Made by a program: the position numbers and the translations under genes | Notes under the pieces: generated by a model | Told to the model about the DNA's origin: nothing | Seen by the model: only the letters and a program-made list of their open reading frames with translations | The model's database searches: none | Part shown: in pieces, positions 3,079 to 27,717 of the stretch | Layout: each line of letters begins with the position of its first letter | How positions within the stretch are numbered: the first letter of the stretch is position 1 | DNA from: a virus | Taxonomy: Duplodnaviria > Heunggongvirae > Uroviricota > Caudoviricetes | Length of the DNA: 36,013 bases | Reading direction: 5' to 3' (one strand) | Virus record (IMG/VR): IMGVR_UViG_2648501802_000001

Positions 3079-3252
3079 ATAATTAACCAGAGTTTTTAAC
3101 GCACTTAATCGTGCGGGGCTTCTTTTTGCCTGGAGAAAGTCATGCATACAGTTTCTGAAAATCAGTGCGGTAAATACGCATTACTGCTGCAACAGGCCTG
3201 AACCGAAGCACAGGCCGACGCTGCGACGCGCTTTTCTTCTCATCTTGACGCC

Positions 3253-3366
3253 ATGATTCGCCACATCACAAAGGCGGAGTTATCCCGCGTGGAGATAGTT
3301 GAGCTGCTCAGTCAGGAGTCGGAAAAATTTCACAATATCGGATTGTCTCGCGGGGAGGTGCTTTGA
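3253..3366 (+). CDS. Very small ORF (P2 orf80 position)
   Basis: About 37 codons read by eye ([19 protein letters not shown]...); not in the ORF track; coordinates approximate. Confidence 0.25.
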
Positions 3367-4164: not shown

Positions 4165-6427
4165 AGCCTCCGGGCGTTTTGTCCCTCCGTCAGCATTTGC
4201 CGCAGGCACCGGTAAGACGTTTACCGGTGCTTATGCATGGAACGCGCCACGCGAGGCCGTCGGGCGCGAAAGACCCCTTACACGTGACGAGATGCGTCAG
4301 GTGCAAGGTGTTTTATCCACGATTAACCGCCTGCCTTACTTTTTGCGTTCGCTGTTTACTTCACGCTATGACTACATCCGGCGCAATAAAAGCCCGGTGC
4401 ACGGGTTTTATTTCCTCACATCCACTTTTCAGCGTCGTTTATGGCCGCGCATTGAGCGCGTGAATCAGCGCCATGAAATGAACACCGACGCGTCGTTGCT
4501 GTTTCTGGCAGAGCGTGACCACTATGCGCGCCTGCCTGGAATGAATGACAAGGAGCTGAAAAAGTTTGCCGCCCGTATCTCATCGCAGCTTTTCATGATG
4601 TATGAGGAACTCTGCGATGCATGGGGTGATGCGCATGGTGAAAAAGAATCGCTGTTTACGGATGAGGCGCAGGCTCACCTCTATGGTCATGTTGCTGGCG
4701 CTGCACGTGCTTTCAATATTTCCCCGCTCTACTGGAAAAAATACCGTAAAGGACAGATGACCACGAGGCAGGCATATTCTGCCATTGCCCGTCTGTTTAA
4801 CGATGAGTGGTGGATTAGTCAGCTTAAAGGCCAGCGTATGCGCTGGCATGAGGCGTTACTGATTGCTGTCGGGGAGGTCAATAAAGACCGTTCTCCTTAT
4901 GCCAGTAAACATGCCATTCGTGATGTGCGTGCGCGCCGCCAGGCAAATCTGGAATTTCTTAAATCGTGTGACCTTGAAAACAGGGAAACCGGCGAGCGCA
5001 TCGACCTTATCAGTAAGGTGATGGGCAGTATTTCTAATCCTGAAATTCGCCGGATGGAGCTGATGAACACCATTGCCGGTATTGAGCGTTACGCCGCCGC
5101 AGAGGGTGATGTGGGGATGTTTATCACGCTGACCGCGCCGTCAAAGTATCACCCGACACGTCAGGTCGGAAAAGGCGAAAGTAAAACCGTTCAGCTTAAT
5201 CACGGCTGGAACGATGAGGCATTTAATCCAAAGGATGCGCAGCGTTATCTCTGCCGTATCTGGAGCCTGATGCGCACGGCATTCAAGGATAATGATTTAC
5301 AGGTCTACGGTTTGCGAGTCGTCGAGCCACACCACGACGGAACGCCGCACTGGCATATGATGCTTTTTTGTCATCCACGCCAGCGTAACCAGATTATCGA
5401 AATCATGCGTCGCTATGCGCTCAAAGAGGATGGCGACGAAAGAGGAGCCGCGCGAAACCGTTTTCAGGCAAAACACCTTAACCGGGGCGGTGCTGCGGGA
5501 TATATCGCGAAATACATTTCAAAAAACATCGACGGCTATGCACTGGATGGTCAGCTCGATAACGACACCGGCAGGCCGCTGAAAGACACTGCAGCGGCTG
5601 TTACCGCATGGGCGTCAACGTGGCGCATTCCGCAATTTAAAACAGTTGGCCTGCCGACAATGGGGGCTTACCGTGAACTACGCAAATTGCCTCGCGGCGT
5701 CAGCATTGCTGATGAGTTTGACGAGCGCGTCGAGGCTGCACGCGCCGCCGCAGACAGTGGTGATTTTGCGTTGTATATCAGCGCGCAGGGTGGGGCAAAT
5801 GTCCCGCGCGATTGTCAGACTGTCAGGGTCGCCCGTAGCCCGTCGGATGACGTTAACGAGTATGAGGAAGAAGTCGAGAGAGTGGTCGGCATTTACGCGC
5901 CGCATCTCGGCGCGCGTCATATTCATATCACCAGAACGACGGACTGGCGCATTGTGCCGAAAGTTCCGGTCGTGGAGCCTTTGACTTTAAAAAGCGGCAT
6001 CGCCGCGCCTCGGAGTCCTGTCAATAACTGTGGAAAACTCACCGGTGGTGATACTTCGTTACCGGCTCCCACACCTTCTGAGCACGCCGCAGCAGTGCTT
6101 AATCTGGTAGATGACGGTGTTATCGAATGGAATGACCAGGAGGTCGTGAGGGCGCTCAGAGGTGCATTAAAACACGGTCTGAGAAGACCAAACCGTCAGC
6201 AAAGAAACGGAAGCCCGTTAAAACCGCATGAAATAGCGCCATCGGCCAGACTGACCCGGTCGGAACGAATGCAAATTACCCGTATCCGCGTTGACCTTGC
6301 TCAGAACGGTATCAGGCCGCAGCGATGGGAGCTTGAGGCGCTGGCGCGTGGTGCAATTGTGAACTATGGCGCAAAAGAATTTCATTACCATGTTCAGAAG
6401 GCGTGGGAAGCATTTTCGAGGTGGTAA
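4154..6427 (+). CDS. A: Replication initiation protein A (rolling-circle HUH endonuclease)
   Basis: HUH motif (TPHWHMMLF) and tyrosine motif (YIAKYISKNIDGY). The track ORF starts at TTG 4112; the first ATG is 4154. Confidence 0.93.
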   Translation: MDVKASGRFVPPSAFAAGTGKTFTGAYAWNAPREAVGRERPLTRDEMRQVQGVLSTINRLPYFLRSLFTSRYDYIRRNKSPVHGFYFLTSTFQRRLWPRIERVNQRHEMNTDASLLFLAERDHYARLPGMNDKELKKFAARISSQLFMMYEELCDAWGDAHGEKESLFTDEAQAHLYGHVAGAARAFNISPLYWKKYRKGQMTTRQAYSAIARLFNDEWWISQLKGQRMRWHEALLIAVGEVNKDRSPYASKHAIRDVRARRQANLEFLKSCDLENRETGERIDLISKVMGSISNPEIRRMELMNTIAGIERYAAAEGDVGMFITLTAPSKYHPTRQVGKGESKTVQLNHGWNDEAFNPKDAQRYLCRIWSLMRTAFKDNDLQVYGLRVVEPHHDGTPHWHMMLFCHPRQRNQIIEIMRRYALKEDGDERGAARNRFQAKHLNRGGAAGYIAKYISKNIDGYALDGQLDNDTGRPLKDTAAAVTAWASTWRIPQFKTVGLPTMGAYRELRKLPRGVSIADEFDERVEAARAAADSGDFALYISAQGGANVPRDCQTVRVARSPSDDVNEYEEEVERVVGIYAPHLGARHIHITRTTDWRIVPKVPVVEPLTLKSGIAAPRSPVNNCGKLTGGDTSLPAPTPSEHAAAVLNLVDDGVIEWNDQEVVRALRGALKHGLRRPNRQQRNGSPLKPHEIAPSARLTRSERMQITRIRVDLAQNGIRPQRWELEALARGAIVNYGAKEFHYHVQKAWEAFSRW

Positions 6428-6537: not shown

Positions 6538-7458
6538 ATGGGCTTGGCGATGTATAACGATCCTTATAGTGACCCAAAAGCGTGGGAATCATATTTCAAA
6601 AATATTGTTTGGCTACATTATAAGCCTGCTAACTGTTGTGACTTGCCAGATGAGCATGGAGGCGACTTTGGGCTGGAGTGTTACACTCTGAGTGGTCATG
6701 TTTTTCAGTGTTACTTGCCTGAGCAGTCGAGTGATATTGATAAGCTTTATAAAGCGCAACAAAAAAAGATTTATACTGATATAAAAAAGTTTTCTCAGGA
6801 TAACATTAAAGAATTAGAGGAGCTTTTTGGCACATTAAAAATTAGCCGCTGGATATTAGCTACACCATATAATAAATCGGCGAAATTAAGTCAATATTGC
6901 ACAAAAAAATCATTAAAAGTAAGAGAGTTAGGGATTTCTTACGTTGCTGATGATTTTCAAATAGTAGTGCAAACAGATCGAAATTATATAGAAGAAGCGT
7001 TCTTTCTTCGCAAAAATAACTATCAATTAAGCTTTAATATAAATGATGCGACGGCTGAGAATGCTGCTAACTTTATTAGTGAAAATACATCTTTTTTAGA
7101 TAAGCTAAATTTAAAATTACCTAAGATAAATGATGATGTATCTAGGCAGGGTTTATATAGAGAGTTTTTAATACAAAAATATCTTGATTATCAAAACTTG
7201 CTGGATGCTTTGAAGAGAGACTGGGTTGATATCTATGAAATTATCTATAACTGTGTTCAACATAGAGAACGTAATTTGGTAGGTCTCTTTCTTCTTACTT
7301 CATCAGATGCGAAACCATCAGATATAATGAAAGATGAAATCGCTTTGTTAAAGAAATGTATTGAAGAGGAAGTTAGTACGCTTAAACAGGCTGACTTGGA
7401 TAAGATAACATGGGGAGTTATTTCTGATTGGCTTATAAGATGCCCTTTAGATTTTTAG
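6538..7458 (+). CDS. Unknown 306-aa protein, first gene of hotspot operon (candidate effector, LmuA-like position)
   Basis: AT-rich ORF immediately after A; 1-nt gap to the next gene; no motif I can assign confidently. Confidence 0.7.
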   Translation: MGLAMYNDPYSDPKAWESYFKNIVWLHYKPANCCDLPDEHGGDFGLECYTLSGHVFQCYLPEQSSDIDKLYKAQQKKIYTDIKKFSQDNIKELEELFGTLKISRWILATPYNKSAKLSQYCTKKSLKVRELGISYVADDFQIVVQTDRNYIEEAFFLRKNNYQLSFNINDATAENAANFISENTSFLDKLNLKLPKINDDVSRQGLYREFLIQKYLDYQNLLDALKRDWVDIYEIIYNCVQHRERNLVGLFLLTSSDAKPSDIMKDEIALLKKCIEEEVSTLKQADLDKITWGVISDWLIRCPLDF

Positions 7459-7459
7459 A

Positions 7460-7936
7460 ATGGAAAAGCAAATGCATATAACGATAGATGAAATAATAGG
7501 AAGGCCGTTTACGTTTAATAAACGACCTGAACATTTGCCATGTGATATGAGACCATTGTGGCGTTGCAGTTTGTTGCTGATAATATTCCTTGTCACAGGG
7601 AGAGCTGGTTGCTGTTCTTTAAAAAAACTTCATTTAATTAATTGGATGTTAAAGTCAGAGAATAATGAAGCAATGTTTGAATTCTGGCTTTTAAACAAAG
7701 AAGGTTTAAAGCCTGAAGTAAGATTGGATCCAACTTTAGATAGAGCAATACAGCTATTATTAGCAGAGGATTTTATTTTGAGAAATGAACGAGCGTTCAA
7801 AATAAATGAAAAGGGGCTTAAGGTCGCTGAGAAATTGCTTTCTCTTGATGTGTTCAAAGAAGAAAGGTTGGTGCTAAATAAACATAAGGCTGGACTGTCC
7901 GAAACTAACATTAATAAAATATTTCAGGTGGGTTAA
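7460..7936 (+). CDS. Small 158-aa protein with winged-helix-like C-terminus (LmuC/kleisin-like position)
   Basis: Translationally coupled on both sides (1-nt gaps); AT-rich. Confidence 0.65.
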   Translation: MEKQMHITIDEIIGRPFTFNKRPEHLPCDMRPLWRCSLLLIIFLVTGRAGCCSLKKLHLINWMLKSENNEAMFEFWLLNKEGLKPEVRLDPTLDRAIQLLLAEDFILRNERAFKINEKGLKVAEKLLSLDVFKEERLVLNKHKAGLSETNINKIFQVG

Positions 7937-7937
7937 T

Positions 7938-9959
7938 ATGTCGTTGGAAATTATTTCATTGGAGTTAGTAGCAAATACTTCGGATGGGCGTTATGGTGTT
8001 AGTATACCTTTTTCAAATGGCTTGTTTTTATTAAGAGTTGAGAATTCTCATGGTAAATCAACTTGCATGAATGGGATTGCATATGCACTTGGGATGGAAA
8101 AGGCATTAGGTGTCGGTTCTGGAAAAATCCCATTCCCTCCATCTTTGACTAGAGCACTAACGACAAAAGATAATGTTGAAGTTAGTGTAATATCATCTTA
8201 TGTTTTGCTAAAAATAAAGAATCATAAGGGAATAGAAGCATCTTTGAAAAGGAATATTATCGGTCACGATAATAATAATGTTATTTATATAGATGAGAAG
8301 AATAATGTAAAAAGTAAGAGTGGTACTTATTTTTTACATAGAGAGGGCGATACTGAAAGGGAACGTGGTTTCTATAAGTGGTTAGCTGATTTTATAGGTT
8401 GGAGTTTGCCAAATGTTCCAAACCATAATGGGAAGGACACTATTCTTTATCCATCCGTACTTTTCCCTGCATGGTATGTTGAGCAAAAAAAAGGATGGTC
8501 GTCAATTATGGCGACTGTACCAACACAATTTGGAATTAAAGAGCCAAAGAAAAGAGCTCTAGAATTTTTAATGTCTCTTGATGTTAATGATAATATTTTA
8601 TTGCGTAGTTCGTTAAGAAATGAACTTGATATTATTTATCATGATTGGAAGTTAATTAAACACAATGCAGAAGTTATTGCTTCTAAATTGTCGTCAGTTG
8701 TCACAGGGATTCCTGAACAACCAGTGGCAAAATTTGATCATTATAAGATAGATTTGATTATTAAAAATGGTAGCGTCGTTAGATCTATTGTTGATGTTCG
8801 TAATGAACTGGAAAAAGAGTTGCAAGAAATTAAGTTTGACACTCTTGGTGAGCAAGAAGAACAAACTTTACAATTATCAGTGGTTAAGTTATTAGGTCAA
8901 AAAAATGATGAAATTAACTCTCTGGAATTAAAGATTAAAGAGATTTGTGAGCATAGAAGTTATATTCAATATCAAATTCAGGCGACCAAAAACAGATTGT
9001 ATAATCTGTTGGAAGATAAAAGGAAGTATGAAGATTTAAAGAAAATATCATCTTCGGATGCGTATAAGTCAACAGATTTAATGTCAAATATTTGTCCGAC
9101 TTGTGGTGCAAGTTATAATGATAATTTGCTAAGTTTTTCATCGCAAGAAAATCTGATGACATATGAAGATAGTTTGAACTTTATTAAAGAGCAAGTAAAA
9201 GCATTTGAGTTTGTTCTGTCGGATAGTGAAAAGCAATTAAAGCTTAAAGATGTTGAGAGGAGTGATTTAGAGGGGGAAATAGCCAAGATTAGAGTTGATA
9301 TTAATGCATTAAGGGAGTCAAAATATCCCTCAATGGTTGTTCAGGAGGAGTTTCTGAGACGTAAAATAAACATTGAGAATAAAATTAATGCCATTAACGA
9401 TGGCATTAAAAGTATATTGGACATTAGACTGGAGTTGGATTCATTACACCGTAGATATAAAAAGCTTATCGCGAAAAGAAAAGGGTTGCCAGATAATTTC
9501 TTGTCGCGTAATGATGCCGATAAGTTAAAATTTCTTAATAAAGAAGTCGTTGCACGATTAGAAAAATATAATTTTACAAGTTTTGATTCTAAACTTGTGT
9601 CAATATCAGAAGATAATTACTTACCTACTAGGGAAGGATATGATATAGGTTTTGACACATCAGCTAGTGATGGAATAAGAATCATTTGGGGTTATTTAAT
9701 AAGTTTATTTGTTGTTGGTTCTAAATTTCAAACAAATCACCCTGGATTGATTGTGTTTGATGAGCCTCGTCAACAAGAAGCAAATAAAGTAAGTTTTGCC
9801 GAGTTACTTAAAGATGCTGCAGAAACAACAAAAGGACAAGGGCAGATCATTTTTGCTACATCAGAAGATGAAAATGTCTTAAAAGAGGCATTAGAAGGGT
9901 ATGACTATACAATGATATCCTTTGATAAGAACAATGGGAAATTGTTGAGGAAATTATAA
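7938..9959 (+). CDS. SMC/Rad50-like ABC ATPase with coiled coil and CxxC zinc hook (LmuB-like)
   Basis: Walker A VENSHGKST (aa 35-42); long charged heptad-rich middle with CPTCG (aa 386-390); C-terminal Walker B GLIVFDEP. Confidence 0.8.
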   Translation: MSLEIISLELVANTSDGRYGVSIPFSNGLFLLRVENSHGKSTCMNGIAYALGMEKALGVGSGKIPFPPSLTRALTTKDNVEVSVISSYVLLKIKNHKGIEASLKRNIIGHDNNNVIYIDEKNNVKSKSGTYFLHREGDTERERGFYKWLADFIGWSLPNVPNHNGKDTILYPSVLFPAWYVEQKKGWSSIMATVPTQFGIKEPKKRALEFLMSLDVNDNILLRSSLRNELDIIYHDWKLIKHNAEVIASKLSSVVTGIPEQPVAKFDHYKIDLIIKNGSVVRSIVDVRNELEKELQEIKFDTLGEQEEQTLQLSVVKLLGQKNDEINSLELKIKEICEHRSYIQYQIQATKNRLYNLLEDKRKYEDLKKISSSDAYKSTDLMSNICPTCGASYNDNLLSFSSQENLMTYEDSLNFIKEQVKAFEFVLSDSEKQLKLKDVERSDLEGEIAKIRVDINALRESKYPSMVVQEEFLRRKINIENKINAINDGIKSILDIRLELDSLHRRYKKLIAKRKGLPDNFLSRNDADKLKFLNKEVVARLEKYNFTSFDSKLVSISEDNYLPTREGYDIGFDTSASDGIRIIWGYLISLFVVGSKFQTNHPGLIVFDEPRQQEANKVSFAELLKDAAETTKGQGQIIFATSEDENVLKEALEGYDYTMISFDKNNGKLLRKL

Positions 9960-13250: not shown

Positions 13251-13865
13251 ATGGCAAAAAAAGTCTCAAAATTCTTTCGTATCGGCGTTGAGGGTGACAC
13301 CTGTGACGGGCGTGTCATCAGTGCGCAGGATATTCAGGAAATGGCTGAAACCTTTGACCCGCGTGTCTACGGTTGCCGCATTAACCTGGAACATCTGCGC
13401 GGCATCCTGCCTGACGGTATTTTTAAACGTTATGGCGATGTGGTCGAACTGAAGGCCGAAAAGATTGATGACGATTCGGCGCTGAAAGGCAAATGGGCGC
13501 TGTTTGCGAAAATCACCCCGACCGATGACCTTATCGCGATGAACAAGGCCGCGCAGAAGGTCTATACCTCAATGGAAATTCAGCCGAACTTTGCCAACAC
13601 CGGCAAATGTTATCTGGTGGGGCTGGCCGTCACCGATGACCCGGCAAGCCTCGGCACGGAATACCTGGAATTCTGCCGCACGGCAAAACACAACCCTCTG
13701 AACCGCTTCAAATTAAGCCCTGAAAACCTGATTTCAGTGGCAACGCCCGTTGAGCTGGAATTTGAAGACCTGCCTGAAACCGTGTTCACCGCCCTGACCG
13801 AAAAGGTGAAATCCATTTTTGGCCGCAAACAGGCCAGCGATGACGCCCTGATGACGAACTGCTGA
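13251..13865 (+). CDS. O: Capsid scaffolding protein/protease (shortened)
   Basis: MAKKVSKFFRIGVEGDTCDG... ending ...FGRKQASDDALMTNC; about 204 aa versus about 284 aa in P2 as I recall it. Confidence 0.8.
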   Translation: MAKKVSKFFRIGVEGDTCDGRVISAQDIQEMAETFDPRVYGCRINLEHLRGILPDGIFKRYGDVVELKAEKIDDDSALKGKWALFAKITPTDDLIAMNKAAQKVYTSMEIQPNFANTGKCYLVGLAVTDDPASLGTEYLEFCRTAKHNPLNRFKLSPENLISVATPVELEFEDLPETVFTALTEKVKSIFGRKQASDDALMTNC

Positions 13866-13923: not shown

Positions 13924-14946
13924 ATGCGCCAGGAAACCCGCTTTAAATTTAATGCTTACCTGTCCCGTGTTGCCGAACTGAACGGCATCGACGCCGGTGA
14001 TGTGTCGAAAAAATTCACCGTTGAACCGTCGGTCACCCAGACCCTGATGAACACCATGCAGGAGTCCTCTGACTTTCTGACCCGCATCAACATTGTGCCG
14101 GTCAGCGAAATGAAAGGGGAAAAAATTGGCATCGGTGTCACCGGCTCCATCGCCAGCACCACCGACACCGCCGGTGGCACCGAGCGTCAGCCGAAGGACT
14201 TCTCGAAGTTGGCGTCAAACAAGTACGAATGCGACCAGATTAACTTCGATTTTTATATCCGCTACAAAACGCTGGACCTGTGGGCGCGTTATCAGGATTT
14301 CCAGCTCCGTGTCCGTAACGCCATTATCAAACGCCAGTCCCTTGATTTCATCATGGCCGGTTTTAACGGCGTGAGGCGTGCCGAAACCTCTGACCGCAGC
14401 AGTAACCCGATGCTGCAGGATGTGGCGGTCGGCTGGCTGCAGAAATACCGCAATGAAGCCCCGGCGCGCGTGATGAGCAAGGTTACTGACGAGGAAGGTC
14501 ACACGACCTCTGAGGTCATCCGCGTGGGTAAGGGCGGTGATTATGCCAGCCTTGATGCACTGGTGATGGATGCGACCAACAACCTGATTGAGCCGTGGTA
14601 TCAGGAAGACCCTGACCTTGTGGTGATTGTGGGACGTCAGCTACTGGCGGACAAGTATTTTCCCATCGTCAACAAGGAGCAGGACAACAGCGAAATGCTG
14701 GCCGCTGACGTCATCATCAGCCAGAAACGCATCGGCAACCTGCCAGCGGTACGCGTCCCGTACTTCCCGGCGGATGCGATGCTCATCACGAAGCTGGAAA
14801 ACCTGTCCATCTACTACATGGATGACAGCCATCGCCGCGTGATTGAGGAAAACCCGAAACTCGACCGCGTGGAGAACTACGAGTCAATGAACATTGATTA
14901 CGTGGTGGAGGACTACGCCGCCGGTTGTCTGGTGGAAAAAAATTAA
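13924..14946 (+). CDS. N: Major capsid protein (C-terminally truncated by frameshift)
   Basis: 340 aa ending VEKN*; the sequence after an A-run in the +1 frame reads IKVGDFSTPAKATAEPGA* up to 14998. Confidence 0.85.
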   Translation: MRQETRFKFNAYLSRVAELNGIDAGDVSKKFTVEPSVTQTLMNTMQESSDFLTRINIVPVSEMKGEKIGIGVTGSIASTTDTAGGTERQPKDFSKLASNKYECDQINFDFYIRYKTLDLWARYQDFQLRVRNAIIKRQSLDFIMAGFNGVRRAETSDRSSNPMLQDVAVGWLQKYRNEAPARVMSKVTDEEGHTTSEVIRVGKGGDYASLDALVMDATNNLIEPWYQEDPDLVVIVGRQLLADKYFPIVNKEQDNSEMLAADVIISQKRIGNLPAVRVPYFPADAMLITKLENLSIYYMDDSHRRVIEENPKLDRVENYESMNIDYVVEDYAAGCLVEKN

Positions 14947-15001
14947 GGTCGGTGATTTCTCCACACCGGCTAAAGCGACCGCAGAGCCGGGAGCGTAACC
15001 G

Positions 15002-15745
15002 ATGACGAGTCCCGCACAGCGCCACATGATGCGGGTCTCGGCAGCGATGGCCGCGCAGCGGGAAGCCGCCCCGCTGCGACATGCAACTGTCTATGAGCAG
15101 ATGCTGGTCAAGCTGGCCGCAGACCAGCGCACACTGAAAGCGATTTATTCAAAAGAGCTGAAGGCCGCGAAAAAACGCGAACTGCTGCCGTTCTGGTTGC
15201 CGTGGGTGAACGGCGTGCTGGAGCAGGGCAAAGGTGCACCGGATGACATTCTGATGACGGTCATGCTGTGGCGTCTGGATACCGGCGATATTGCCGGTGC
15301 GCTGGAGATTGCCCGTTATGCCCTGAAGTACGGTCTGACCATGCCGGGTAAACACCGCCGCACCCCGCCGTACATGTTCACCGAGGAGGTGGCGCTCGCG
15401 GCCATGCGCGCCCACGCGGCCGGTGAGTCTGTGGATACCCGCCTGCTGACGGAGACCCTTGAACTGACTGCCGCTGCTGACATGCCTGATGAAGTGCGCG
15501 CAAAGCTGCACAAAATCACCGGTCTGTTTCTGCGTGACGGTGGTGATGCCGCCGGTGCGCTGGCTCACCTGCAACGTGCGACACAGCTCGACTGTCAGGC
15601 AGGCGTCAAAAAAGAGATTGAACGACTGGAGCGGGAGCTGAAACCGAAGCCGGAGCCGCAACCCAAAGCGGCCACCCGTGCCACGCGTAAGACCCGGAGC
15701 GTGACACCGGCAAAACGTGGACGCCCGAAAAAGAAAGCCAGTTAA
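15002..15745 (+). CDS. M: Terminase small (endonuclease) subunit
   Basis: 247 aa, P2 gpM-like, in conserved position. Confidence 0.88.
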   Translation: MTSPAQRHMMRVSAAMAAQREAAPLRHATVYEQMLVKLAADQRTLKAIYSKELKAAKKRELLPFWLPWVNGVLEQGKGAPDDILMTVMLWRLDTGDIAGALEIARYALKYGLTMPGKHRRTPPYMFTEEVALAAMRAHAAGESVDTRLLTETLELTAAADMPDEVRAKLHKITGLFLRDGGDAAGALAHLQRATQLDCQAGVKKEIERLERELKPKPEPQPKAATRATRKTRSVTPAKRGRPKKKAS

Positions 15746-18767: not shown

Positions 18768-19221
18768 GTTTAAGCGTTTTGAAGACCGGCTGACCGGACT
18801 GATTGAGTCGCTGTCACCGTCAGGGCGTCGTCGACTGGCGGTAGATATTGCGAAGAAGCTGCGCCAGCGCCAGCAGCAGCGAATTAAATTACAAAAAGCC
18901 CCGGATGGTACGCCGTATGTACCGAGAAAAAACCAACCAGTACGAAATAAGAAAGGCCGGATAAAGCGGGAAATGTTTATGAAATTACGCACTAACCGGT
19001 TTATGAAAGCAACCGGTAGCGAGAGTGCCGCGGTGGTGGAGTTTGCCAGCGGAGTGCAACGAATTGCGCGAGTGCATCAGTATGGTTTAAAAGATAGACC
19101 CAATCCCGACGTTAAACCTATTAAGTATGATGAACGTAAACTACTTGGTTTTTCACATAATGATATTGACTTTATAGAATCAACGATCATTAATTGTCTT
19201 CTGGAAAAATCCAGAGAATAG
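18760..19221 (+). CDS. S: Tail completion protein S (3' end AT-rich)
   Basis: 153 aa with P2 gpS-like N-terminus (MNEFKRFEDRLTGLIESLSPSGRRR); the last ~45 codons are AT-rich. Confidence 0.8.
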   Translation: MNEFKRFEDRLTGLIESLSPSGRRRLAVDIAKKLRQRQQQRIKLQKAPDGTPYVPRKNQPVRNKKGRIKREMFMKLRTNRFMKATGSESAAVVEFASGVQRIARVHQYGLKDRPNPDVKPIKYDERKLLGFSHNDIDFIESTIINCLLEKSRE

Positions 19222-19236
19222 GAAGGTAAAGTACAA

Positions 19237-19776
19237 GTGACATGTAAAAAGAATGAAGGTGATGTTGTAAAGAAAATTGAACTGGTGCTGAAAACAATCG
19301 CGCGGACGGATTCTTATTTAAATTCAGCCAATACTAAATCAACGATATTACTAAGCTTAGCTTCAGCTGTAATTGTTGCTATTATAGCAAATTTTGACAA
19401 AGTTATATGTCTGGTAGATGTGGATAGTGATAGGATTTTTCTCTCTCTTTTATTGATTGTAATAGTTGGGTTATTGGTGATCTCTTTGTTATTTTCTCTA
19501 AAAGGTGTTACTCCAAATATCTCTAAGAGTGATAAGGAGAATACTTTTTCATTTGTTGATATATCAAGTTATTATAGTAGTCTTGATTGCTATTCTAGTA
19601 GTTTTAAGTCAGTGAGTGATCTGGAGTTGTTGGAGCAGTTAATTGCATTGAATTATACTCTTTCCAGAGCATTAACTAGCAAATATGAGATGCAAATCAT
19701 AGCCATTGACTTTATAAAAATGGCTGTTTATGTGCTTTGTTTTTTAATATATGTGGTTGCTTTATCTAATTGGTGA
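19237..19776 (+). CDS. Small membrane protein with three predicted TM helices (candidate effector)
   Basis: 179 aa; GTG start with GGAAGG RBS; hydrophobic stretches ILLSLASAVIVAIIANF, IFLSLLLIVIVGLLVISLLFSL and IIAIDFIKMAVYVLCFLIYVVAL; very AT-rich. Confidence 0.7.
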   Translation: MTCKKNEGDVVKKIELVLKTIARTDSYLNSANTKSTILLSLASAVIVAIIANFDKVICLVDVDSDRIFLSLLLIVIVGLLVISLLFSLKGVTPNISKSDKENTFSFVDISSYYSSLDCYSSSFKSVSDLELLEQLIALNYTLSRALTSKYEMQIIAIDFIKMAVYVLCFLIYVVALSNW

Positions 19777-19786
19777 AGGTTTTTGT

Positions 19787-21139
19787 ATGTCCATAAAGAG
19801 TATTTATTTAGTATTAGATGAAAGGCTGGAAGAGATAATTTCAAAATCAAAATCGCAATCAGTCCATGATGCTATATTTGAATCAGTGGATAATACACAG
19901 TTGGCCACGGAGAGCTTAAGTAAATCTTCTGGTTTCGTAAGAAGTTCTATTTCATTGAAAAAAGATGTAGGTGGAGCTGATGTTCAAAGTTATCAGGTGA
20001 AAGATATTGTTAGAAATAAATTTGGCAAGCACGGTCCACTCATGACAAGTTTTGGATGTCATCCGGACTTTAATAAAATGGATGATGGTGAGGTGAGAAA
20101 TGGTTATTCCATTACCATGTTTATGGATATAATCGGCTCAACTAAACTTGGGGTTGTTTTTCCACCAGAAATAGTATTTAGAATCAAAAATGATATTATA
20201 AGATGTGCGATCGAAACAGTGAATGCATTTGATGGTCACGTCCATAGAATTATGGGTGATGCAGTAATGGCATTTTTCCGAAGTAATGACCGATATAAAA
20301 ACAATAAGATCGCAGACAGTGCAATTGATGCAATAAACTGTGCCGTTGTTTTGATTGAAATGTTCAAGGGGGTTGTTATACCTAAATTGAGTGATTTGGG
20401 AGTTGACGAAAACTTAGGAATAAGAATTGGTCTTGACTATGGCCCTCACGAGGAAGTGGTGTGGTCAAAATATGGCTATATGGAAAGTCATGAAGTGACT
20501 GCGACATCTTTTTTTGTTGATGTTGCGGCAAAACTTCAGCAAAAAGCTCCTAAAAACTCAATTATGATAGGTGCAAGTTTTGTAGAGTTATTAGGCCTTG
20601 ATGATGTTCAATTAAAACATAAAATTAACAGAAACAATGGCGTAGAACACAAGGAATTGTATTTAACCCCAAATTATAAAGATGCTTCAGGCAAACCAAT
20701 AAATTACAGACAATATGTATTTGATAACGAACGTTATTGTAATTTGCTGCCTATAAATGATGAGGGGGGTAAACTCATTGTAAAAGCAACGCTTAAGAAG
20801 AGTGAAAATGATGTGTCTGATGATGAGTATATTTGTTGTTCTCGAATGATAAAAAAGGGTATGGGTATCTCATTTAAAGGGTACTATTACTCACAAGAAC
20901 AGTACTCTAATCCCAGGTTCAAATTTCGTGTCGAAAATACAGGTCCTGATGCAGGTAATGTTGATAATAAGGGTAATCATGAGTCATATGAGGTAGCAAG
21001 GTACACTGGCGAGCGTTATTTTGCTAAGCATTGGGAAGATTGTCATTACAAAGGACTGCATTATATGTTTGTATCTTTTTGGAATGGGGATCAATTAATA
21101 GAAAGGGAGAGGTGTTTTTCAGTTTTTATTAACGATTAA
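19787..21139 (+). CDS. Class III nucleotidyl cyclase-like protein with uncharacterised N- and C-terminal extensions
   Basis: Motifs FMDIIGST (aa ~112) and HRIMGDAVMAFF (aa ~154), with the two Asp residues about 44 residues apart; ATG 19787 with GGTGAAGG RBS (the track ORF starts at 19751); AT-rich. Confidence 0.75.
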   Translation: MSIKSIYLVLDERLEEIISKSKSQSVHDAIFESVDNTQLATESLSKSSGFVRSSISLKKDVGGADVQSYQVKDIVRNKFGKHGPLMTSFGCHPDFNKMDDGEVRNGYSITMFMDIIGSTKLGVVFPPEIVFRIKNDIIRCAIETVNAFDGHVHRIMGDAVMAFFRSNDRYKNNKIADSAIDAINCAVVLIEMFKGVVIPKLSDLGVDENLGIRIGLDYGPHEEVVWSKYGYMESHEVTATSFFVDVAAKLQQKAPKNSIMIGASFVELLGLDDVQLKHKINRNNGVEHKELYLTPNYKDASGKPINYRQYVFDNERYCNLLPINDEGGKLIVKATLKKSENDVSDDEYICCSRMIKKGMGISFKGYYYSQEQYSNPRFKFRVENTGPDAGNVDNKGNHESYEVARYTGERYFAKHWEDCHYKGLHYMFVSFWNGDQLIERERCFSVFIND

Positions 21140-21239
21140 ATTGTGATTTATTTGAGGGGGGGAATGTAGTCTGTTGTATCATACCTCACCAAAGCATCAA
21201 AATTTGCCGCTAGTGTAAACTAGCGGCATCCTTCCCGTT
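21140..21239 (+). promoter_or_regulatory. Putative late promoter region upstream of V
   Basis: CTGTTGTATCA (21171-21181) resembles the element upstream of O; a GCCGCTAG...CTAGCGGC hairpin just before the V start. Confidence 0.35.
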
Positions 21240-23736: not shown

Positions 23737-24932
23737 CAGTGAAATACTACGCCATTCTGACTAATCAGGGCGCAGCACGGCTGGCTAACGCGACGATGCT
23801 CGGCAGTAAGCTGAATCTGACGCAAATGGCCGTTGGTGATGCGAATGGTGTCTTGCCGACACCAGACCCGGCACAGACAAAACTGATTAACCAGAAACGC
23901 ATCGCGCCGCTGAATCTTCTGAGTGTTGACCCGAACAACCAGAGCCAGATTATTGCGGAGCAAATCATCCCTGAGAACGAGGGCGGATTCTGGATCCGTG
24001 AGATTGGGCTTTATGATGATGAAGGCGTACTCATTGCGGTGGCGAACTGCCCGGAAACGTACAAACCGCAGTTGCAGGAAGGCAGTGGTCGTACCCAGAC
24101 TATCCGCATGATTCTGGTTGTCACGAATACCGAAGCTATCACGCTGAAAATCGACCCGTCGGTGGTACTGGCGACCCGTAAATACGTGGATGATGAAGTC
24201 CTGGAATTAAAGCTGTATGTGGATGACCAGATGAGAAACCACATTGCCGCACAGGATCCTCATACCCAGTATGCGCAGAAACATAATCCGACATTTACCG
24301 GAGAACCAAAAGCGCCGACGCCTGCCGCAGGAAATAACACCACGCGGATTGCGACCACTGAGTTTGTTCAGGCCGCTATTACCGCTCTGATTAACGGTGC
24401 GCCAGCCACACTGGACACACTGAAAGAAATTGCCGCGGCCATTAACAATGACCCGAAATTCAGCACCACCATTAACAATGCGCTGTCAGGTAAGCAGCCA
24501 CTGGATGAGACGCTGACTCATTTGAGTGGAAAGGATGTAGCTGGTCTTCTCGCATACCTTGGTTTGAGAGAAGCGGCAAAACGGGATGTGGGGACAGGGG
24601 AAAATCAGATACCGGACATGGCCTCTTTTGCCAGTGGTGATGGATGGATGAAATTACCCAACGGGAAAATCCTGCAATATGGTCGTGGTGCGGTTACGCC
24701 GACATTATCGACGCAAACAATGAGAATTACATTCAGCATCCCTTTCCCCAAAAAAGCGGACTGCGCCATGCTTACTCATTCTGGTGATGGCGGTGCGCCT
24801 TTAGGCGCTGGGCGAGGGTTCGTGATGACTGCAGAAGGCCCAACGTTAACCGGCTTTAATTCTGCTTACAGAACGTCATCAACCAGCGACACGGTATCGA
24901 TGAATTACAGTTGGTGGGCTGTTGGTGAGTAA
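23733..24932 (+). CDS. H: Tail fibre protein with exchangeable C-terminus
   Basis: 399 aa with conserved P2 gpH N-terminus (MTVKYYAILTNQGAARLANA...); an inversion crossover site lies inside the gene at about 24556. Confidence 0.85.
   Translation: MTVKYYAILTNQGAARLANATMLGSKLNLTQMAVGDANGVLPTPDPAQTKLINQKRIAPLNLLSVDPNNQSQIIAEQIIPENEGGFWIREIGLYDDEGVLIAVANCPETYKPQLQEGSGRTQTIRMILVVTNTEAITLKIDPSVVLATRKYVDDEVLELKLYVDDQMRNHIAAQDPHTQYAQKHNPTFTGEPKAPTPAAGNNTTRIATTEFVQAAITALINGAPATLDTLKEIAAAINNDPKFSTTINNALSGKQPLDETLTHLSGKDVAGLLAYLGLREAAKRDVGTGENQIPDMASFASGDGWMKLPNGKILQYGRGAVTPTLSTQTMRITFSIPFPKKADCAMLTHSGDGGAPLGAGRGFVMTAEGPTLTGFNSAYRTSSTSDTVSMNYSWWAVGE
24556..24572. repeat. Left inversion crossover site (hix/gix-like)
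   Basis: ACCTTGGTTTGAGAGAA; its inverted partner is at 26456-26472 with 2 mismatches; core resembles the hix ACCTTGGTTT. Confidence 0.6.
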
Positions 24933-24943
24933 TTTTATTCAGG

Positions 24944-25396
24944 GTGATTTATATGAACGAATATGTTTATAGCGCAAGGCATAATGCTTTTTTCCCTGTG
25001 GATATGATTGATAAATATAAATCAGAGGGATGGGATTTATCAGACGCTAAGGAAGTAAATCAAAATATTATCAGTGAGTTTATGGCTGAACCGCCACAAG
25101 GAAAAATCCGTATTGCCGGAGATGATGGGCTGCCTGCGTGGGCAGATATTCCTCCACCCACGCATGAAGAGCTTATTGAAATTACTGAATCAGAAAGACA
25201 GCTACTAATTAACCAGGCCAACGAATACATGAACAGTAAGCAATGGCCCGGTAAAGCCGCTATTGGTCGTCTGAAAGGTGAGGAACTGGCGCAATATAAT
25301 TTGTGGCTGGATTATCTGGATGCACTGGAGCTGGTTGATACCTCCAGTGCACCAGATATTGAATGGCCTACGCCTCCGGCAGTTCAGGCCAGATGA
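24944..25396 (+). CDS. Tail fibre assembly chaperone (gpG/Tfa-like)
   Basis: 150 aa immediately after H; conserved Tfa-type C-terminus. Confidence 0.75.
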   Translation: MIYMNEYVYSARHNAFFPVDMIDKYKSEGWDLSDAKEVNQNIISEFMAEPPQGKIRIAGDDGLPAWADIPPPTHEELIEITESERQLLINQANEYMNSKQWPGKAAIGRLKGEELAQYNLWLDYLDALELVDTSSAPDIEWPTPPAVQAR

Positions 25397-25970
25397 CATC
25401 CGGCGCGGTGCTGGTATCTGTTGCCGTCACCGCGTCAATGTAATCCAGCACAGCGTTAAGCCGGGTTGTTTCTGCCTGCGTCAGTTTACGTCCGGCCTGC
25501 AATTTCAGTTGAATCAGACTGATGGAAGCCATTGCAGTATCAATCAGCGACTGGCGCTGTGCTTCTGCTGCATCTACTGCGGCGCTATGCTGTGCCTCGG
25601 TATCCGTCACCCATTTCTCACCATCCCATTTATCATATGGCGTTAATGGGGCGATAGTGGTTGTATTTTCAGGGTAATCACCCGGAGCGGTGATTTCTTT
25701 TGATTCTCCTGTTTCGGTGCTATAGACCGTTTCACCGCGATGGTCTGGCACATATTCCCATGAGTTAAAATCTGCAGAACGGCAGATTGCATAACCAGCC
25801 TTATGTGTGCCAGGGGCATCTAAACAGGAACATGCCGGAATGCCGACACCAACGGCAAGATATTCATTTGAAGTGGAAATATATTCCCGTGTTTCACCAT
25901 CATAGTTATAAACGGTAACATCCCCTGCCTTTGTTGCAATGAGCTCACTATTTAATATTGCTTTATGCAT
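25368..25970 (-). CDS. Alternative tail fibre assembly chaperone (Tfa') in the invertible segment
   Basis: 200 aa, convergent with the forward Tfa; start overlaps the stop of the alternative fibre segment (ATGA). Confidence 0.7.
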   Translation of the reverse strand: MHKAILNSELIATKAGDVTVYNYDGETREYISTSNEYLAVGVGIPACSCLDAPGTHKAGYAICRSADFNSWEYVPDHRGETVYSTETGESKEITAPGDYPENTTTIAPLTPYDKWDGEKWVTDTEAQHSAAVDAAEAQRQSLIDTAMASISLIQLKLQAGRKLTQAETTRLNAVLDYIDAVTATDTSTAPDVIWPELPEA

Positions 25971-26464
25971 CAGGCTGCCCTCACGATATAGTTAAATGCA
26001 ATATTACGCGGACGCGTTTCTGAGGCTGCGGCACCTAAACCAGCCACTGATTGTTTATATGTTTTAAAGGTTCCATAATCCGGTGCTGGTAATCCAGCAT
26101 CGTTTGTGTTTCCTCTTTTGATAATGTCAGTGCCACTATTTACCCAGCTTTCATCAAAATAGAAATTAATCGTTGCATCAGTCACAATCGTGGATCTTGA
26201 CGGTAATCCATGAGCATGATCCTCCGTTGCATACCCCTGAATACTTAAAATAGAGCGACCTGTATCAATCCCCCGCCCGTCATCCCAGCCACGAATAAAC
26301 TCACCACGTAAATCAGGCAATTTATTTGTCGGGTAAGCCTTTGCCAGTTCCGGGTATTCTTCAGCCGAAAAAGCAGCCCCGTTGCATTTCAGCCAGCCTG
26401 TTGGCGGCGTAGCTGAAGGCCAAGGAACTGGTATGCCAACAGGCAACGCAGAACCTTCTCCCAA
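25970..26464 (-). CDS. Promoterless alternative tail fibre C-terminal segment (H')
   Basis: Fibre-tip-like sequence on the minus strand with no ATG start (the track M is a TTG); reading frame stays open up to the right crossover site. Confidence 0.6.
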   Translation of the reverse strand: MGEGSALPVGIPVPWPSATPPTGWLKCNGAAFSAEEYPELAKAYPTNKLPDLRGEFIRGWDDGRGIDTGRSILSIQGYATEDHAHGLPSRSTIVTDATINFYFDESWVNSGTDIIKRGNTNDAGLPAPDYGTFKTYKQSVAGLGAAASETRPRNIAFNYIVRAA

Positions 26465-26472
26465 ACCAACGT
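26456..26472. repeat. Right inversion crossover site (hix/gix-like)
   Basis: TTCTCCCAAACCAACGT, inverted repeat of 24556-24572. Confidence 0.6.
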
Positions 26473-27123: not shown

Positions 27124-27717
27124 ATGCGTATAGGTTATGTTCGTGTATCAACAAATGACCAGAACACGGAATTGCAGCGTAACGCGCTCGAGTGCGCAGG
27201 ATGTGAGCTGATTTTTGAGGATAAAATCAGCGGCACGAAGTCCGACCGACCGGGGCTGAAAAAACTGCTCAGAACATTATCAGCAGGTGACACTCTGGTA
27301 GTCTGGAAGCTGGACAGGCTGGGGCGTAGTATGCGGCATCTGGTCATTCTGGTTGAGGAACTGCGCGAACGCGGCATTAATTTTCGCAGCCTGACAGATG
27401 CTATTGATACCAGCACGCCGATGGGGCGTTTTTTCTTTCATGTGATGGGTGCCCTGGCTGAAATGGAACGAGAACTCATTGTCGAACGGACTCGGGCCGG
27501 GCTGGAAGCGGCCAGAGCCAAAGGTCGTATTGGTGGCAGACGTCCTAAACTCACCACGAGTGAGTGGGAGCAGGTCGGGCGTTTGCTGGCTGCAGGGGAG
27601 TCACGTCAACGCGTGGCACTGATTTTTGATATTGGCCTGTCCACGCTCTATAAAAAATTTCCCTCATCAGCGATAAAGAATAAATTGTGTCATCCCTTAG
27701 CCAACCGGGACAAATAG
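27124..27717 (+). CDS. Serine DNA invertase (Hin/Gin/Pin/Cin family)
   Basis: MRIGYVRVSTNDQ... with catalytic Ser region; LVVWKLDRLGRS; C-terminal HTH. Confidence 0.9.
   Translation: MRIGYVRVSTNDQNTELQRNALECAGCELIFEDKISGTKSDRPGLKKLLRTLSAGDTLVVWKLDRLGRSMRHLVILVEELRERGINFRSLTDAIDTSTPMGRFFFHVMGALAEMERELIVERTRAGLEAARAKGRIGGRRPKLTTSEWEQVGRLLAAGESRQRVALIFDIGLSTLYKKFPSSAIKNKLCHPLANRDK

Follow-up and report, generated by a model that had tools for sequence, protein, structure and literature searches.

An apparent early stop in the major capsid gene of a P2-like Escherichia coli prophage, probably a homopolymer-length consensus error

Capsid gene N and its reading frames

The window, that is, the whole stretch of 36,013 nucleotides analysed here (IMG/VR record IMGVR_UViG_2648501802_000001), is a complete P2-like E. 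coli prophage inserted between yegR and yegQ. Its head genes follow the synteny of P2, with Q and P divergent from O, N, M and L, and the features discussed below are located as follows.

13251..13865, + strand: gene O, scaffold/protease, 204 aa compared with 284, with an in-frame deletion of 240 bp (residues 200-279)
13924..14946, + strand: gene N, major capsid protein, 340 aa as read, ending LVEKN*
14936..14942, + strand: run of seven A's, six in all relatives; the extra base shifts the frame of N
14942..14998, + strand: +1-frame remainder of N, encoding IKVGDFSTPAKATAEPGA*, which corresponds to gpN residues 340-357
15002..15745, + strand: gene M, small terminase / endonuclease subunit, from the open reading frame list and the ST2747 annotation
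21156..21162, + strand: intergenic run of seven G's; six G's in the related contigs L128 and L129, seven also in the ST2747 genome CP007394

As read, gene N stops at codon 341, with isoleucine 340 replaced by asparagine (I340N) and residues 341-357 absent. The initial annotation had placed the stop after VEKN at 14946 and the A-run at about 14936-14942, and all of these coordinates were confirmed. In the +1 frame, translation ends at a stop codon at 14996-14998, 3 nt short of the M start at 15002, and a GGAG motif at 14990-14993 is likely the ribosome-binding site of M. When one A is removed, N encodes 357 aa that align from residue 1 to residue 357 with the 'Major capsid protein gpN' of PDB 7jw1 (E 1.5e-237), with three substitutions in total and full identity over the final 18 residues, and the repaired protein has 100% identity with gpN of phage HK239. 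Agreement at 18 of 18 residues in a shifted frame cannot be chance. This alignment to P2 gpN, which had been proposed as a check in the initial annotation, bears out the P2-like C-terminus that it had read in the +1 frame up to 14998, just before M, as well as the length of 357 aa that it had given for gpN and that is also the length of the protein in 7jw1. Furthermore, the Pfam family PF05125 (Phage_cap_P2) matches residues 8-340 of the repaired N over the entire profile (positions 1-327 of 327; E 6e-151). Judged by this full-length profile match and by synteny, N is classed as a P2-family major capsid protein (gpN, PF05125), with near-identity to the gpN C-terminus appearing only once one A is removed.

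The prophage in ST2747 and in independent relatives

Alignment of the window with the genome of E. coli ST2747 (NZ_CP007394.1, locus L001) contains one gap in 35.1 kb, which is the extra A at 14936, and three mismatches, all of which lie at the crossover sites of an inverted tail-fibre segment. The two prophages are the same element at the same chromosomal site and differ by this single base and the flip of the invertible segment. Gene N of ST2747 is intact and encodes 357 aa. Over these 35 kb, all remaining homopolymers have the same length in the window as in CP007394, among them nine further A7 runs and a single A8 run.

The inverted segment comprises 1.9 kb (window 24559-26472) and is flanked by short imperfect inverted crossover sites (TTGGTTTGAGAGAA / TTCTCCCAAACCAA), and a recombinase gene is encoded nearby (window 27124-27717). 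The inversion changes the C-terminal part of tail-fibre protein H, which has 399 aa in the window versus 441 aa in ST2747. Together, these sequences suggest activity of a Gin/Cin-type invertase in the clone. The prophage also contains two putative defence modules. The region from replication gene A to portal gene Q includes three genes (window 6550-9959) that match Lamassu LmuA (E 9e-30), LmuC (E 2e-23) and LmuB (E 1e-98), and a Pycsar pair consisting of a PycTM effector (E 8.5e-29) and a PycC cyclase (E 1.5e-128) is located between tail genes S and V (window 19237-21139). The Pycsar cargo is also present in the independent relatives L127-L129, which are introduced below.

Four independent contigs (L126-L129) were found via neighbouring proteins. 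All three that cover N carry six A's and encode a 357-aa N, namely L126 (97.4% identical to the window), L127 (99.44%) and L128 (99.95%), while L129 (99.955%) ends before N. Relative to L128 and L129, the window shows three to four substitutions and two indels, both of which lengthen a long homopolymer by one base (+1), from A6 to A7 in N and from G6 to G7 at 21156. The G7 run at 21156-21162 reflects either a difference between lineages or a systematic overcall of homopolymer length common to the PacBio assemblies of ST2747. Sequence 3' of the shift in N shows no decay and is identical to that of the relatives. In L127 (GCA_038714055.1, at about 5036-5505), the C-run that corresponds to window position 18899 is shorter by one base (C3 vs. 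C4) and tail gene S was left uncalled; this sister prophage seems to have a homopolymer frameshift of its own, in a gene other than N.

The exact 24-mer with seven A's had no match in IMG/VR, in 185,579 species-representative genomes or in JGI metagenomes; its 6-A version had at least 120 exact matches in IMG/VR viral contigs alone. Among the complete RefSeq E. coli genomes listed, none matched at 100% across the site, and each listed top match was one base shorter than the query. The exact 340-aa product, looked up among called proteins, was not on record. The early stop had been ascribed to a +1 homopolymer insertion in the initial annotation, and the comparison agrees with this, as every relative examined has six A's and a single 357-aa open reading frame, and the 7-A allele was found nowhere else. 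The N genes of the relatives do not end at VEKN, an outcome that the initial annotation had named as one that would speak against its reading.

Scaffold gene O and the gpN tail

Beside N, gene O carries a larger lesion, a deletion of 80 codons that was missed in the initial annotation. The deletion takes out the scaffolding domain but leaves the protease domain and the LMTNC at the C-terminus in place, and the Pfam profile PF05929 is matched at positions 1-195 of 268 only. Two imperfect direct repeats of 12 bp (GCGATGACGCCC and GCGGTGACGCCC), which are 240 bp apart in intact genes, flank the junction at about 13838-13849. RefSeq flags gene O of ST2747 as a pseudogene 'missing C-terminus', a description that is not accurate, as the terminal LMTNC is retained. 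Procapsid assembly in P2 is reported to depend on the C-terminal domain of gpO (residues 195-284), which is called 'absolutely required' (PMC7552001). Because gpO of the window lacks residues 200-279 and thereby this required domain, heads would not be expected to assemble even with an intact N.

Of the E. coli records at the top of the ranking, ST2747 was the sole 100% single-piece match to a query for the O deletion, and the exact junction had no match in the viral, genome and metagenome contig collections. The view that the deletion is private to ST2747 was nevertheless withdrawn, as an identical deletion is present in L126 (3172-3786), a different P2-like prophage with 97.4% identity to the window and 11 synonymous differences inside O. 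The deletion is rare, and since it is identical in this diverged prophage it is either recurrent or circulating. L128, at 99.95% identity, encodes an O of 284 aa, and the deletion is therefore recent in the lineage of the window. The occurrence of the same repeat-flanked 240-bp in-frame gpO deletion in two diverged P2-like prophages is a mildly interesting by-product of this analysis. A further lesion affects a DUF2732-family early gene (window 3142-3366), whose identical ST2747 copy is annotated as a pseudogene and carries an internal stop. Elsewhere the prophage is intact, and this applies to the invertase as well as to the defence genes.

The residues of gpN that are lost in the window as read fall outside PF05125, which covers residues 8-340. 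A solved homologue (7oz4) is 339 aa long and extends only a few residues beyond the alignment, and alignments to distant P2-family capsid proteins mostly end at 340-346, with the tail absent. In the P4 procapsid model, gpN is built as far as residue 346 of 357, and residues 347-357 are left unmodelled (PMC7552001). The truncation amounts to a changed I340 and the loss of six modelled and eleven unmodelled residues. An inactivating mutation had been one of two explanations offered in the initial annotation; that the truncation inactivates gpN is not established, because the tail lies outside PF05125, is mostly unmodelled and is missing in distant homologues.

Origin of the extra base

Three isogenic ST2747 genomes have been deposited, the parent and two nitrofurantoin-selected derivatives (CP007392, CP007393 and CP007394), each of which was assembled with HGAP from ~28x PacBio RS II C2 reads and whose chromosomes differ in size by up to 91 kb (PMC3983296). 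The error rate of this project was measured on CP007394 alone, RefSeq's one ST2747 genome, in a sample of 100 kb outside prophages (NZ_CP007394.1 100001-150000, L123, and 4000001-4050000, L124). Four genes in the sample, yijE, eptC, argH and ubiK, are flagged as frameshifted by RefSeq. Alignment with K-12, which spans argH, yijE, eptC and the 16S rRNA gene, revealed ±1 homopolymer changes in the three protein-coding genes (T4 to T3 in argH, A6 to A5 in yijE and C3 to C4 in eptC) and the loss of one G from the conserved 16S rRNA stretch GCAGTGGGGAAT; the ubiK frameshift is taken from the RefSeq flag alone. The changes in argH, yijE, eptC and 16S rRNA are not credible as biology of a wild isolate, and the lesions of CP007394 point to residual consensus errors genome-wide. 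Their density in the CP007394 sample, ~4 core-gene frameshifts per 100 kb, equals roughly one per 25 kb or ~1 per window-sized stretch.

On these sequence comparisons, the extra A is probably a homopolymer-length consensus error and not a feature of the DNA, a reading to which we assign a probability of about 0.8. The true sequence would then contain six A's and an ordinary 357-aa P2-type N with its stop 3 nt before M. The window, from its sequence identity, would be one of the two ST2747 sibling assemblies other than CP007394, and A7 would be a residual homopolymer error of the kind seen in CP007394. The change is a ±1 difference confined to a homopolymer, and a second assembly of this clone lacks it; the project to which identity assigns the window has the same class of error in genes that are not plausibly broken. 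Of the two explanations in the initial annotation, a sequencing error is much likelier than an inactivating mutation, because the genomes of the clone stem from a low-coverage PacBio project with homopolymer errors in the available assembly. Against a consensus error, local consensus quality is good, with all other homopolymers matching CP007394 over 35 kb, and the ST2747 siblings are separate cultures (the parent and nitrofurantoin-selected derivatives), so that real differences between them are possible.

Alternatively, the extra A could be real, i.e. a very recent A6 to A7 slippage frameshift in one ST2747 culture or sub-lineage that yields a gpN of 340 aa (I340N, without residues 341-357) in an already head-defective prophage. 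Expansion from A6 to A7 is a natural hotspot of replication slippage, and +1 changes in homopolymers are the commonest class of spontaneous frameshift. The agreement of the other homopolymers between the two assemblies and the separate plating and drug selection of the sibling cultures also speak for a real difference. Furthermore, the gpO 200-279 deletion and the internal stop in the DUF2732-family gene imply that purifying selection on N would be relaxed; with the head module crippled by the O deletion, a real frameshift in N would not be selected against. However, three platings would bring a handful of real mutations to a 5-Mb genome, which leaves a chance of only a few percent that one of them falls within the 36 kb of the window, whereas the homopolymer error density of the sister assembly predicts roughly one error per window. 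In addition, the 7-A allele has no second carrier in the three collections and occurs in no independent isolate, and the downstream sequence shows neither decay nor the accumulated mutations of a prophage pseudogene. We consider a real mutation unlikely. Its consequence would be small, and as a second hit it would be trivial, since the gpO deletion alone is expected to abolish head assembly.

We give very little credence to the combination of a real 7-A allele with some functional capsid still being made, either by a working 340-aa gpN, the PF05125 domain of which is whole and which lacks no more than a lineage-specific, mostly unmodelled tail, or by a low-level transcriptional loss of one A that restores gpN. 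If this were the case, it would, together with the recurrent gpO deletion, represent a stepwise disarming of the head module with the Lamassu/Pycsar cargo and an active invertase retained.

Recoding, by a +1 ribosomal frameshift or by RNA polymerase slippage that drops one A, would yield full-length gpN from the 7-A template. A run of seven A's allows low-level slippage, and an mRNA lacking one A would restore the frame exactly; moreover, the zero frame contains A_AAA_AAU, a heptamer of slippery form. However, this heptamer favours a -1 shift, and the -1 frame encodes the unrelated GKKLRSVISPHRLKRPQSRERNR*. No rare or stop codon was found in the A site adjoining the A-run, and the minimum free energy of the downstream RNA (-22.3 kcal/mol; z = -0.61 versus shuffles) indicates no structure beyond chance. 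Furthermore, the site is unconserved, as six A's and a single open reading frame are seen in all relatives, with the 7-A allele confined to the window. In bacterial genomes, selection against transcriptional slippage, or its use, is evident at runs of 9 and sometimes 8 A/T (PMC1088944), and the run of seven A's in N is shorter than these. Recoding of either kind at this site is accordingly the least probable of the explanations weighed here, with hardly any weight left to it. Programmed +1 or -1 frameshifting was rejected on account of the unconserved site, the junk -1 frame and the lack of a stimulatory structure, and designed transcriptional slippage on account of the short and unconserved run; as far as can be judged from the sequence, programmed recoding is effectively excluded. 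Ribosomal frameshifting had already been rated as less likely in the initial annotation, in keeping with the unconserved site, the wrong direction of the heptamer and the absence of structure.

With a consensus error as the preferred explanation, the N site itself is nothing novel, and the result is one of quality control, in that the apparent capsid truncation should be listed neither among pseudogenes nor among recoding sites. Compared with known systems, N resembles gpN of P2 in its length of 357 aa after repair and in the Q-P / O-N-M-L gene order, and differs in that the open reading frame in the window ends early. P2 reportedly uses a programmed -1 frameshift in its tail-chaperone genes E/E+E', a conserved site of P2-like phages from which two functional products arise. 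The N site shares with it the phage genome and a short slippery site of homopolymer type, but is unique to the window, would need a shift in the opposite direction and lacks a stimulator. Decaying P2-like prophages with frameshifted pseudogenes are matched by the further lesions of the window, i.e. gpO without residues 200-279 and the internal stop in the DUF2732-family gene, but the N lesion is present in one sequence only and the downstream sequence is undecayed. Finally, although the place of the window in the ST2747 project is assigned by sequence identity, the N site is like the homopolymer indels of low-coverage PacBio CLR assemblies (C2 / HGAP), with a ±1 change in a run of six or more identical bases that is absent from the same-lineage assembly and from the relatives.
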